36,587 bases of DNA. It comes from a virus (Duplodnaviria > Heunggongvirae > Uroviricota > Caudoviricetes). The stretch lies in IMG/VR virus record IMGVR_UViG_2703718784_000020; one strand, 5' to 3'. Positions 33,259 to 36,587 of this stretch are shown piece after piece. The notes beneath the pieces are model-generated. The model saw only the letters and a list, made by a program, of their open reading frames with translations. It ran no database searches and was not told the origin of the DNA. Both the position numbers and the translations under genes were made by a program. Numbering within the stretch: position 1 is the first letter of the stretch; the number at the start of each line of letters is the position of its first letter.

Positions 33259-33609
33259 TTATAAATCAGCCTGTTTAATAAAACTTTGCCCGCGAAGCAG
33301 ACGATCAACCGTGCGAAGTGCTTCGTATAATGTGAAATCCTGCCCGAAGTGATTGTCGCCGCAGTTCAATGCAAAAATGCGGTTTCCGGTAAACGGATTG
33401 CGTGGGCATTTGTGGACCACGATTCCAGCTTTCTCAATCAGCCAGGCATGCTCGCCGATTTGTTTTACAGCGTGGCCATCCGGTGTTGCGTGCGTCTCGT
33501 TCAGGTTATAGCGACTGTTACTACGTGATGCACTGGTAGCGACGTGGTGTACATGGCGTTCTACGCCATTACGAAATTTGGAGTATGGATTATTAGCGTT
33601 TTTTTTCAT
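33259..33609 (-). CDS. Hypothetical early protein with Cys/His cluster
   Basis: 116-aa ORF; segment HKCPRNPFTGNRIFALNCGDNHFG may bind metal. Confidence 0.45.
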   Translation of the reverse strand: MKKNANNPYSKFRNGVERHVHHVATSASRSNSRYNLNETHATPDGHAVKQIGEHAWLIEKAGIVVHKCPRNPFTGNRIFALNCGDNHFGQDFTLYEALRTVDRLLRGQSFIKQADL

Positions 33610-33630: not shown

Positions 33631-33834
33631 TTAGCTGTTAGCCAAAGCGTCTTTTAACATCGCCACAAGGTTTACTTCAGGCTTTTCCATTTTGGCGCGT
33701 TTGGGGCGGATAATAATTCGACCGTCAGCCAACATCTTTTTGCACGTATTAAGAGGGATACCTGTTATCTCTGCATATTTCTGCAGGGATACATAGGGGG
33801 CATTCACATTGATATTGATGGTTATACCTGACAT
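33631..33834 (-). CDS. Small helix-turn-helix DNA-binding protein (Cox/excisionase-like)
   Basis: 67-aa product; segment PYVSLQKYAEITGIPLNTCKKMLADGRI resembles the HTH of P2 Cox-type proteins; second gene of the early operon. Confidence 0.5.
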   Translation of the reverse strand: MSGITININVNAPYVSLQKYAEITGIPLNTCKKMLADGRIIIRPKRAKMEKPEVNLVAMLKDALANS

Positions 33835-33850
33835 CCCACTAGCCTCCTGA

Positions 33851-34057
33851 TCAGGAAGATTTGTTTTGTTCTTTCTGGGTTAGCTCTAGGCCGCGAAGGA
33901 AGATCATGCGCGCCATGTTAGAGGATGAGCGTTGTTCTTTAGCTGCCATTTCATCAATGACGGCTCGCTCCTCGAGGGACAGCCGAAGTGCCAGTCTTGG
34001 ACCTGTGGCGGTGTTACGCGGAATGCGTGATCTGGTATCGTGAAGAACTTGTTTCAT
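33851..34057 (-). CDS. Ribbon-helix-helix DNA-binding protein, first gene of the early (lytic) operon
   Basis: 68-aa product; PRLALRLSLEERAVIDEMAAKEQRSSSNMARMIF fits the beta-strand then helix pattern of CopG/Arc proteins; divergent from the repressor gene. Confidence 0.55.
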   Translation of the reverse strand: MKQVLHDTRSRIPRNTATGPRLALRLSLEERAVIDEMAAKEQRSSSNMARMIFLRGLELTQKEQNKSS

Positions 34058-34117
34058 AGTGGTATATTGTGATCATCTAATAGCTCGTGAAATCATTTTG
34101 GTATCAAAAAAGATACC
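34034..34117. promoter_or_regulatory. Immunity switch region: repeated TGGTAT half-sites and inverted repeat GGTATC-A6-GATACC
   Basis: TGGTAT occurs at 34034, 34060 and 34100; perfect inverted repeat GGTATCAAAAAAGATACC at 34100-34117, 15 bp upstream of the repressor start; lies between divergent repressor and early genes. Confidence 0.45.
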
Positions 34118-34132
34118 TGTCAAGGTTTTTGT

Positions 34133-34537
34133 ATGAAAAATGATATTGGTCAGCGGTTGCGTGAGGAAAGGGAAAGATTGGGACTTAGTCAAGTTGCCAT
34201 GAGCGACATTGGTGGAGTCAAAAAGCTAACTCAGCTTAGATATGAGAAAGGAGATAGCTTTCCTGATGCTGCGTATTTGGCAGCGCTGTCTCGTTTTGGC
34301 CTTGATGTTCAGTATGTTGTGTTGGGAATTCACTCACCTGAAACTTATAACGATGATGAGCAGGAGTTGATTACTCGCTTTCGAGCAGCTTCGTTAGATG
34401 TGAAAAACGCGGTGATTGGGGCTTTAAAAGGTGCGATCAGTGAAAAGGAAACTCAGCCATCAGGACGTGAGTTAAATATTTCTGGTGGTAATAACCGTAT
34501 CGCTGGTCGTGACTATAACGAAACTAAGGGTAGGTGA
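34133..34537 (+). CDS. Immunity repressor, XRE-family helix-turn-helix
   Basis: 134-aa product; N-terminal IGQRLREERERLGLSQVAMSDIGGVKKLTQLRYEKG is a typical Cro/C1-type HTH; transcribed toward int as for the P2 C gene. Confidence 0.75.
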   Translation: MKNDIGQRLREERERLGLSQVAMSDIGGVKKLTQLRYEKGDSFPDAAYLAALSRFGLDVQYVVLGIHSPETYNDDEQELITRFRAASLDVKNAVIGALKGAISEKETQPSGRELNISGGNNRIAGRDYNETKGR

Positions 34538-34552
34538 TAGTAGGGAGGTGAC

Positions 34553-35203
34553 ATGGCCGTCAACTCAAACGGTTCAAACAATCGCGTTGCTGGGCGTGAT
34601 TTTCACGAAAAGAATATTCAGATAGAGCGATATGATGGTTCTCATACCGTCAATATCGCAATCCCTTCGAATAATGATGATGACGATCGCCCTTTGCTTA
34701 AGGCTCAGCGTAAGGAGCTAAATAGCTTGGTTGCTGCTATTGCAGAAGCTAGCAATACTGAAGCGTTTATTATTTGGCAAAAAGTACATGCGGAGATTGG
34801 TGTAGCTGGTATTGATGATATGACAGTAAATCAATATAAAACAGCGGAGAGTTTTCTGCATGCAATGCTTGAGCGATGTAAAGATCATGATGCCTGTAAG
34901 GCTCTTGTAAGTTTATTACTACGTAACAGTGAAGACTGTGGACTTCGACAAAAACTTCTGCGGTATTGCCATATCAATTTCGGTACAGGACGTTTAAACG
35001 ATCTTACTCGTTCTCAGTTACAGTCTGCATTGTCGTGGTTAGAGCAACAATCGGCATCAAGCCACACAGAGAGTTCGACCTTACCAGAAGTCCGACTTCG
35101 TGCTTCAGAATTAATCCGACTTTATCCAAAAGAAATAATATTCTTTATCTGCGTAGGGGTTTTGGTAGGCGGTGTCATTTCTAGGGCGTTTTTTAATTTG
35201 TAA
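34553..35203 (+). CDS. Tail-anchored membrane protein of unknown function (lysogeny-operon cargo)
   Basis: 216-aa ORF 15 bp after the repressor gene with RBS GGGAGG; single C-terminal hydrophobic helix IIFFICVGVLVGGVISRAFF; AT-rich. Confidence 0.55.
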   Translation: MAVNSNGSNNRVAGRDFHEKNIQIERYDGSHTVNIAIPSNNDDDDRPLLKAQRKELNSLVAAIAEASNTEAFIIWQKVHAEIGVAGIDDMTVNQYKTAESFLHAMLERCKDHDACKALVSLLLRNSEDCGLRQKLLRYCHINFGTGRLNDLTRSQLQSALSWLEQQSASSHTESSTLPEVRLRASELIRLYPKEIIFFICVGVLVGGVISRAFFNL

Positions 35204-35232
35204 TCTTACTTGAGCTAAATTGAGGTAATGAT

Positions 35233-35580
35233 ATGAAAGTAAAAAAGGTTCAACTATTAGTTACTTTTTTATCTATGTTTTCTTTTTCCGCCGTCGCAAT
35301 GCCTTTTAAAACTATTGAACGTGAGAGTTTCAATGGGGTATGGCCATTTAATACTGATGAGGTTCAATTACAGTGTCTTGATGGTAATCCTTATGTGATG
35401 AATTTTGACGATAATAAGTTATATGCACTTACAGGCTTGGCTCGAATAAAAGGTAAAACATTTGGTGGGTTACCGTTAGATAACAATAATCCATTTTGGC
35501 TAGATAATGATGCCGCCCCAGGGTTAAAAAAGAGTCTGGGGGATGTCACTAAGGCTGCATTTGATTTATGTGATAAGTAA
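35233..35580 (+). CDS. Small secreted/periplasmic protein of unknown function (lysogeny-operon cargo)
   Basis: 115-aa ORF with N-terminal signal peptide MKVKKVQLLVTFLSMFSFSAVA; visibly AT-rich; RBS GAGGTAA. Confidence 0.55.
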   Translation: MKVKKVQLLVTFLSMFSFSAVAMPFKTIERESFNGVWPFNTDEVQLQCLDGNPYVMNFDDNKLYALTGLARIKGKTFGGLPLDNNNPFWLDNDAAPGLKKSLGDVTKAAFDLCDK

Positions 35581-35585
35581 CTAAA

Positions 35586-36587
35586 ATGTCGGTTCGTAAG
35601 ATTCCATCAGGTAAATGGCTTTGCGAATGTTATCCCTACGGGGCATCGGGAAAACGCATTCGTAAACAGTTTGCGACAAAAAGTGAGGCGCTCTCTTATG
35701 AGCGCCGTTTAATGAATAGTAGAGTTGGAGACGAGTTTCAAGATGGTTCTGGTCCTCGTCTTTCTGAGTTGATTGCTCGTTGGTTTGAGATGTACGGTAA
35801 AACCTTGTCCTCTGGTGCAGAGCGCAAAGTCAAACTTGAGGCGATTTGTTCCAGGCTGGGAGATCCATTTGCTTCTCAGTTTGACAAAAATATGTTTGCC
35901 ACTTATCGGGAAAGAAGGCTATCAGGAGAATGGAATCCCAAGGGGAAGAAAAAACTTAGTGAAGCAACCGTTAATCGCGAGCAGTCATATCTACATGCTG
36001 TTTTTGCCGAACTGAAGCGCCTTGGGGAGTGGTCTGGTGAAAACCCCCTGACTGGTATTCGCAAGTTTCGTGAGGAAGAAAAGGAACTGGCGTTTCTGTA
36101 TGTAGATGAGATTGAACGCCTTCTGATTGCGTGTGATGAGTCACGGAATAAAGATTTGGGGGTTGTTGTCCGTATTGGGCTTGCGACTGGTGCTCGGTGG
36201 AGTGAAGCAGAAGGATTAAAGCAATCTCAAGTACTGCCCGGTCGAATCACATTTGTTAAAACTAAAGGAAAGAAGAACCGCACTGTACCGATTTCACCTC
36301 AATTGCAGGCTATGCTTCCCAAAAAACGAGGAGCGCTATTTTCACCATGTTATGAGGCTTTTGACGCTGCAATTAAGAGAGCGAAGATCGAGCTTCCTGA
36401 TGGGCAATTAACTCATGTGCTACGTCACACGTTTGCCAGTCATTTTATGATGCGGGGCGGAAATATTCTTGTGTTGCAAAAAATACTGGGGCATAGCGAT
36501 ATAAAAATGACTATGCGTTATGCGCATTTTGCTCCAGGTCATTTAGAGGCTGCTGTTGAATTGAACCCTTTTGACAATAGAGGGTAA
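35586..36587 (+). CDS. int: Tyrosine integrase (P2 Int family)
   Basis: 333-aa product with catalytic residues in ARWSEA (Arg), HVLRHTFASH (His-x-x-Arg) and MTMRYAHF (Tyr); N-terminus KWLCECYPYGASGKRIRKQF typical of P2-type integrases; the stop codon is the last triplet of the window. Confidence 0.9.
   Translation: MSVRKIPSGKWLCECYPYGASGKRIRKQFATKSEALSYERRLMNSRVGDEFQDGSGPRLSELIARWFEMYGKTLSSGAERKVKLEAICSRLGDPFASQFDKNMFATYRERRLSGEWNPKGKKKLSEATVNREQSYLHAVFAELKRLGEWSGENPLTGIRKFREEEKELAFLYVDEIERLLIACDESRNKDLGVVVRIGLATGARWSEAEGLKQSQVLPGRITFVKTKGKKNRTVPISPQLQAMLPKKRGALFSPCYEAFDAAIKRAKIELPDGQLTHVLRHTFASHFMMRGGNILVLQKILGHSDIKMTMRYAHFAPGHLEAAVELNPFDNRG

Follow-up and report, generated by a model that had tools for sequence, protein, structure and literature searches.

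A peptide shared by a prophage repressor and its membrane-anchored neighbour is a candidate pairing motif in P2-like and Mu-like immunity modules

At one end of a 36,587-nucleotide stretch of viral DNA (IMG/VR record IMGVR_UViG_2703718784_000020; the whole stretch is called the window below), the C-terminus of an Xre-type helix-turn-helix (HTH) repressor and the N-terminus of the membrane protein encoded directly downstream carry copies of one peptide. The downstream gene is a conserved partner of this repressor in P2-like and Mu-like prophages of Gammaproteobacteria and Betaproteobacteria, and the two termini resemble each other most within their own pair. Somewhat more probably than not, the repeat serves for pair-specific homotypic pairing and couples the repressor to a membrane-anchored regulator. 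The initial annotation of this DNA, in which the resemblance was noticed, had taken the downstream gene for cargo. The variable cargo begins only after the partner, and the gene that follows the repressor is accordingly to be annotated as a partner within the module and not as a moron.

The repressor gene (34133-34537, + strand; phrog_8, E=2.5e-14) encodes 134 aa and the partner gene (34553-35203, + strand; phrog_5825, E=4e-103) 216 aa, the latter a predicted tail-anchored membrane protein with an Flk_N domain. The repressor copy of the motif, LNISGGNNRIAGRDYNE, occupies residues 114-130 (34472-34522, + strand) and the partner copy, VNSNGSNNRVAGRDFHE, residues 3-19 (34559-34609, + strand), both located by BLASTP and by a DNA pattern scan. 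Aligned with each other, they are identical at 10/17 positions and score positive at 15/17 (E=2e-5 in a single BLASTP comparison), and a degenerate DNA pattern for N-R-x-A-G-R-D-[YF] matched the window at 34493 and 34580 only, with no match in 100 shuffles. The repeat had initially been placed at 34483-34620, a span that includes most of both copies, and its agreement put at roughly 10 of 18 positions; the similarity is real, at 10/20 for the strings quoted then and 10/17 for the core. The accompanying claim of greater divergence in the DNA than in the protein holds only approximately: the copies share 34/60 nucleotides (57%), near the amino-acid identity, although 6 of the 10 identical residues are encoded by different codons.

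Two copies lying 87 nt apart in the same frame might be the neutral relic of a local duplication, the scar of a recombination event, as the initial annotation had also considered, or a chance match. Across 30 pairs, the aligned cores share 59% of their nucleotides, and at identical residues the third codon position agrees in 126/274 cases (46%). Synonymous sites thus look near-randomised, which speaks against recent gene conversion, and recent conversion or duplication was rejected on this figure; the peptide match nevertheless persists across Gamma- and Betaproteobacteria. Nor is the same-frame arrangement conserved, as the two genes share a frame in 16/48 pairs, the chance expectation, and the triple stop that separates them in the window is likewise not a general feature. 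With the BLASTP score, the positional scan, the natural swaps and the co-variation described below, which holds in phages of two lifestyles and in two classes of Proteobacteria, a neutral relic or chance is already refuted, and practically no weight is left on it. Read-through or fusion of the two genes was also considered and rejected. In the window they share one frame across a gap of 15 nt, and the intergenic spacer (34535-34552, + strand) contains the in-frame stops TGA TAG TAG, with GGAGG at 34544-34548 ahead of the ATG at 34553; three stops therefore intervene here, in addition to the frame being shared in so few other pairs. Fusions between the two families were not found either, with no HTH in 137 partner-family representatives and no Flk_N body in 120 repressor homologues.

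A check suggested along with the initial annotation, conservation of the motif in homologues, was run on both families, and the motif is conserved in both. Among the 120 closest partner homologues, the listed N-termini fit M.VNS.G..NR.AGRDF.E with occasional substitutions, while close repressor homologues share the terminal consensus INVSG.GNR[VI]AGRDY[NH]E.KK, and positions 3-19 of the partner-family hidden Markov model match repressor tails. More distant repressor homologues keep the HTH and the following helix; their tails differ and are G/N/Q-rich, for example QIFNGDISGQFAGNQIINN or GEGQIAGGNIY, followed by a basic end. An exact-pattern scan for the motif type of the E. coli copies (type A) in 2.9 million viral contigs (IMG/VR) gave 100 distinct open reading frames (ORFs), with the motif at most 25 residues from the N-terminus in 75 and at most 30 from the C-terminus in 19; the remaining six are start-codon artefacts or chance matches. 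Directly upstream of the motif-bearing ORF in 13 of 15 inspected loci with N-terminal hits only, there is a repressor-homologous ORF that bears the terminal motif in other codons.

Locus scans seeded by the repressor alignment brought in another 160 loci, from IMG/VR as well as from Gamma- and Betaproteobacteria, and the pair occurs in two settings. In P2-like prophages, repressor and partner diverge from cox/arc and are followed, further on, by the integrase; in Mu-like prophages, which include transposable prophages of Pectobacterium and Gilliamella, they diverge from ner, which lies on the side of MuA and DUF3102. Cultured phages are among the carriers: in phage B3, ORF18 ends in GGISVTGDGNRTAGRDFHERKE and ORF20 begins with VNIEVTGSNNIVAGRDFIENH, BcepMu carries the pair as gp17/gp18, and KS10 (gp13) and Ps59 carry repressor homologues. 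Gaps between the paired genes are mostly -4 to +34 nt, with 4-nt overlaps in 12/48 pairs, and no conserved third gene follows the pair, the next gene differing between loci. Among these third genes (L001-L165), often coding for lipoproteins or secreted proteins, 18/46 have a hydrophobic N-terminus and 11 a lipobox-like sequence. Their position, with the immunity pair on one side and the integrase or holin on the other, has the look of a hot spot for morons.

The match between the termini is specific to each pair. When the last 40 residues of the HTH protein were compared with the first 60 of the next gene product, cognate similarity far exceeded that of permuted pairs, both in 83 non-redundant pairs (z=14.9, 0/20000 permutations) and in the 48 non-redundant pairs with G/N/Q/S/T-rich, basic-ended tails (z=10.8, 0/20000). 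The effect is strong in 27 pairs outside type A (z=8.7, 0/20000) and present in the 21 type-A pairs alone (z=2.9, 52/20000). Residue order matters: over the 48 pairs the score was 47.0 for forward sequences, 20.9 for reversed and 19.5 for shuffled ones, with forward above reversed in 46/48, and a compositional artefact was rejected because the reversed and shuffled controls stay near 20 against 47. A negative control set was provided by HTH homologues of the L037-L084 type, which lack the tail and gave background similarity scores. These are chromosomal proteins of the Pseudomonas putida group and relatives without a G/N/Q tail; the product of their next gene starts with LIRVLVVDDHDLVRTG, is response-regulator-like by eye and has no N-terminal motif.

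Natural swaps make the same point at single loci. The repressors of L001 and L130 are 98% identical to about residue 100 and diverge completely afterwards. The L001 repressor ends in IFNGDISGQFAGNQIINN and its partner, of 194 aa with Flk_N and a transmembrane (TM) segment, begins with EFNGTAQGQFSSRDIINI; the L130 repressor ends in VSGDNNRVAGRDYKGK and its partner, a 118-aa protein with a Zn-ribbon and two TM segments, begins with NVGGNNNRVAGRDYHEH. The two partners belong to unrelated families, and each tail matches its own partner. An analogous tail swap is seen between the L003 and L121 repressors at 89% identity. Taken together, these swaps indicate that the tail is exchanged together with the partner gene, and on this comparison of sequences it appears to belong functionally to the partner and not to the repressor body. 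Different motif types also coexist in a single host species or genus, as in Pectobacterium colocasium (type B' in L017, a type-A tail in P0174) and in Pseudomonas (B3 of type A, the pairs L028 and L069 of type B, and a type-B tail in P. aeruginosa P0223). Selection on the peptide, which the initial annotation had suggested, is thus borne out by its conservation in homologues, its co-variation within pairs and its exchange with the partner gene, and the motif behaves, as had also been suggested, like a determinant linking the two proteins.

These patterns bear directly on two other explanations. The first is mimicry or competition, in which both peptides bind one pocket on a third component (a protease, adaptor or chaperone) or on a folded domain of either protein, so that the partner N-terminus competes with the repressor tail. 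Competition for one site predicts similarity, not complementarity, both motif copies are disordered in the manner of short linear motifs, and Flk_N shows a weak likeness to helical bundles that bind peptides, among them the Red-beta C-terminal domain. The pocket, however, cannot be on the repressor body, because bodies 98% identical bear different motif types, and the partners keep the motif match from locus to locus with globular parts that are unrelated. A pocket on a third component is at odds with the several motif types within one host genus or species, each matched in its own pair where the partner was read, and no conserved third gene travels with the pair; mimicry is therefore considered unlikely. 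The second explanation, a shared cleavage site or degron at which one protease processes both proteins, had been part of the initial proposal and is now disfavoured. The termini are exposed and disordered, and in phage Mu the C-terminal tail of the repressor governs its degradation by ClpXP; yet a host protease site should require neither a match within each pair nor a switch of type between near-identical phages of one host, and a beta-prone element of 17-30 residues is long for a degron. It is given very little probability.

In the repressor itself, the HTH and further helices reach to about residue 106; a flexible linker comes next, and the motif and a charged end complete the protein. In its AlphaFold2 (AF2) model, helices span residues 5-106 in an HTH fold, and the predicted local distance difference test score (pLDDT) falls below 50 at residues 105-134. 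The short basic/charged end, TKGR (34523-34534, + strand), has counterparts in the K/R-rich ends of homologues. Pfam matches to HTH_31 and HTH_3 lie under the cut-off, the nearest NCBIfam models are the RstR and DicA repressors, and the window protein has no peptidase domain. It does have the HTH domain, and the gene lies divergent from the lytic-side regulators (cox/arc here, ner in Mu-like loci), both as expected of a phage immunity repressor. BcepMu gp17 and KS10 gp13 have been named lysogenic repressors (PMC2628397), and no experiments on repressor or immunity function of this HTH family were found in the literature. Some repressor tails carry a second strand element (VVFNVG, ATIQVG).

The partner of the window is predicted from its sequence to carry an Flk_N domain: PF27202 (Flk_N) is precomputed on 119 of the 120 listed partner homologues and on loci L001, L003 and L005. 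The N-terminal motif is followed by a second conserved element, KNIQIERYDGSHTVNIAIPS (residues 20-39; 34610-34669, + strand), which appears in the partner-family alignment as an insert relative to other subfamilies and is missing from the window repressor tail. The helical, Flk_N-like cytoplasmic domain comprises residues 47-173 (34691-35071, + strand), and a C-terminal TM anchor residues 192-215 (35126-35197, + strand), the latter supported by an AF2 helix and by hydrophobic C-termini conserved in partner alignments. The AF2 model gives a pLDDT of about 94-98 for the helical domain (blocks over residues 51-170), a terminal helix at 192-215, and a pLDDT of 51-58 without secondary structure for residues 1-45. 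Identity with the flagellar protein Flk was rejected: the match to NCBIfam Flk PRK10715 (residues 37-166, E=8.6e-16) reaches 58 bits against an equivalog cut-off of 353 bits, and the protein has 216 aa against about 330. Genuine Flk starts with MQP.SGP and has no N-terminal motif. Flk (Fluke/RflH) is a cytoplasm-facing, membrane-anchored inhibitor (PMC13344023), and it shares with the partner the architecture of a helical Flk_N domain and a C-terminal tail anchor; unlike the partner, it is chromosomal and not paired with an HTH gene. A weak match to the PHROG 'anti-repressor Ant' covers residues 49-108 of the window partner (E=0.004), and a segment like the first half of Flk_N lies C-terminal to Rha and AntA anti-repressor-type domains in other phage proteins (P0348, P0371).

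At other loci the partners belong to different families, of which 20/22 inspected members are predicted membrane proteins with one or two TM helices. In several, the TM helix is followed by a small predicted periplasmic domain that contains a conserved pair of cysteines (C.F.G..Y.VGS......D..CV), seen in BcepMu gp18 (L167, 2863-3645) and in the partners of L023, L135, L151, L152 and L015; this domain could be a periplasmic redox or ligand sensor. At some partner N-termini two or three motif-like repeats stand in tandem, for example FNKPVGQAIQAGEANI then IRAGSIGSVAGRDIVNV. These repeats and the second strand elements of repressor tails, noted at L049/L167 (partner N-terminus), L151 and L026, recall the two repeats of HET-s and the single repeat of NWD2. 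The partner gene is not always intact: it is split or frameshifted in Gilliamella prophage L004 (4405-4985), and in phage 520873 (NC_049344, 2459-3065) partner matches fall in three unannotated pieces, with the repressor intact in both.

Recognition between proteins normally involves complementary surfaces, so that order-specific similarity between two disordered termini suggests either like-on-like stacking or competition for one site. What argues for homotypic beta-pairing among these is that the genomic signature is the one by which amyloid-signalling pairs were discovered, together with the precedent of Bab/Agp. Bacterial amyloid-signalling motifs BASS1-10 occur in Bell/NLR pairs (bioRxiv 10.1101/2020.01.06.895854), and Bab/Agp (BASS11), from an E. 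coli prophage island, works by amyloid templating (bioRxiv 10.1101/2024.11.07.622273). Like these systems and the fungal pair HET-S/NWD2, the present pairs have one motif at the C-terminus of the upstream product and the N-terminus of the downstream one, with collinear genes and tiny or overlapping gaps. Also common to both are the motif itself, of about 20-25 residues, G/N/Q-rich and proline-poor (here G 14.6%, N 11.8%, V 9.9%, Q 7.2% and P 1.3%), its place in a disordered terminus, its attachment to varied globular domains, its pair-specific match, and the membrane location of one partner. The architecture may therefore be compared to an amyloid-signalling gene pair in which a transcription factor and small membrane proteins would replace the Bell and NLR proteins.

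On homotypic pairing, an element of 17-30 residues, rich in G/N/Q/V and poor in proline, would sit in the unstructured repressor C-terminus and in the partner N-terminus, and the two copies would stack in register as parallel beta strands in the style of amyloid-signalling pairs. The membrane partner might then capture the repressor, or convert it by templating into an inactive assembly, and control of repressor availability is the most likely output. The partner would give a repressor that lacks a RecA-cleavable domain its own membrane-anchored anti-repressor or sensor. A bolder version is entertained only tentatively and is doubtful as it stands. In it, the lysogeny switch of a large group of P2-like and Mu-like prophages would be wired to the membrane by a prion-like amyloid motif; the sensor would force the repressor tail, by templating, into a cross-beta assembly without activity, or vice versa, so that induction or death would be all-or-none and self-propagating. 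Circumstantially, two reports would fit a partner acting as anti-repressor or sensor: in BcepMu, H2O2 lifts the repression of the early operon through a mechanism that was not elucidated (PMC2830190), and in the B3-like phage Fc02 the repressor and the following gene lie on one lysogenic transcript (PMC9936078). The Fc02 RepC/e4 experiments themselves were set aside as evidence, since the B3 ORF18-ORF20 region, used as the query of a DNA search, found no match in Fc02.

Several observations weigh against homotypic pairing or its amyloid-like form. Ten motif peptides gave no match at E<=10 to Pfam models, including RHIM, HET-s and bactofilin, and the E. coli type-A motif carries more charge (R, D, E) than is usual in an amyloid core. 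Known amyloid pairs combine an NLR/STAND or TPR sensor with a Bell or HeLo executioner, and here the domains are instead an Xre HTH and small membrane proteins. Contact between the two peptides would be deduced from sequence comparison, the AF2 models being of monomers, and tight linkage with cassette exchange accounts for co-inheritance and is by itself no proof of contact. Finally, the disruption of the partner gene in L004 and phage 520873 implies that maintenance of lysogeny does not need the partner.

The information might also flow the other way. In a system for exclusion or abortive infection, the repressor tail would nucleate a membrane executioner, causing pore formation or depolarisation, once the repressor changes state, as it might on superinfection; the models are HET-S/NWD2, Bab/Agp or lambda RexA/RexB. 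The pair is apparently co-transcribed from the lysogenic promoter, given the tiny or overlapping gaps and the absence of a terminator-like site, the partners are small membrane proteins with one or two TM helices, and membranes are the targets of known amyloid-signalling effectors. Scans with PADLOC defence models, however, gave no match for 4/5 partner or neighbouring proteins and one weak PbeC match (E=0.005), the periplasmic domains of some partners suggest sensing over killing, and there is no evident switch that would turn a constitutively expressed repressor into a nucleator. Such reverse signalling is regarded as unlikely.

A toxin-antitoxin-like function, in which the tail caps a toxic membrane protein that is freed upon loss of the repressor, is decidedly improbable. 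An operon in which an Xre HTH gene precedes that of a small membrane protein does resemble a type II toxin-antitoxin layout, the HTH has weak similarity to the MqsA and HipB antitoxin families, and disordered C-terminal tails are typical of antitoxins. The interfaces of toxin-antitoxin pairs, on the other hand, are complementary and not self-similar, in complete phages the HTH protein is encoded where an immunity repressor belongs, facing cox/arc or ner, and the partners match no toxin family in Pfam, PADLOC or NCBIfam scans.

Comparison with other repressor systems sets homotypic pairing apart in several respects. Relative to HET-S/NWD2, the BASS pairs and Bab/Agp, a DNA-binding repressor here takes the upstream place of a Bell/HeLo pore-former, a small membrane protein takes the downstream place of an NLR/STAND or TPR sensor, and the setting is the lysogeny switch and not a dedicated defence island. 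A parallel in gene order, and the analogy behind a partner acting as anti-repressor or sensor, is ImmR/ImmA of ICEBs1 and Gram-positive phages, in which a repressor is followed by a co-transcribed anti-repressor and the integrase, and the antagonist is constitutive and activated by a signal. The repressor there also lacks an autocleavage domain; ImmA, however, is a soluble metalloprotease that cleaves ImmR, and that system is not known to have a shared terminal motif or a membrane anchor. In lambda, the lysogen co-transcript cI-rexA-rexB includes the membrane protein RexB, and Qtip inactivates the cI of phage VP882 by sequestration or aggregation and not by cleavage. Neither case is known to involve a motif common to the repressor and the other protein, and the families are unrelated.

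A prior description of the motif pair, or of amyloid-type motifs on repressors, was not found in the full-text literature, subscription journals being outside the scope of that search. The conservation and co-variation of the match point to a seemingly undescribed physical coupling, possibly amyloid-like, of the lysogeny switch to the cell membrane. Many temperate phage repressors lack a RecA-cleavable domain and the mechanism by which they are switched off is often obscure; a pair-specific motif would provide a concrete route from the envelope to the lysogeny switch, and E. coli P2-like prophages, Pseudomonas B3 and Burkholderia BcepMu offer tractable systems. If the pairing is amyloid-like, amyloid signalling would extend from NLR-type immunity to viral transcriptional control, and the motif types (A, B and others) would constitute natural orthogonal pairing tags.

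This end of the window carries the immunity and integration functions of a P2-like prophage. Over the region searched, 33800-35650, identity with Escherichia phage 520873 (Peduoviridae, Xuanwuvirus) is 97.9%, and this region is found in 525/5426 complete E. coli genomes. On the - strand, the divergent lytic-side operon begins with a gene for a small Arc-like regulator (33851-34057; phrog_3431, E=1e-28), followed by a Cox-like excisionase/repressor (33631-33834; phrog_575, E=1.2e-27) and a DUF4761 protein (33259-33609; Pfam E=2e-64). On the + strand, the variable cargo slot after the pair, outside the conserved module, holds a gene for a DUF2511/YebY-like secreted protein (35233-35580; Pfam DUF2511, E=5e-6), and a P2-type tyrosine integrase (35586-36587; Pfam Int_N and Phage_integrase) ends the prophage. 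A terminator-like site was sought between the repressor and integrase genes and none was found, and the repressor and partner genes look like one operon. In the divergent promoter region (34060-34117), an inverted repeat, GGTATC-AAAAAA-GATACC, lies at 34100-34117 and an additional TGGTAT at 34060-34065, both of them candidate repressor operators, and a leftward promoter-like site spans 34123-34095.

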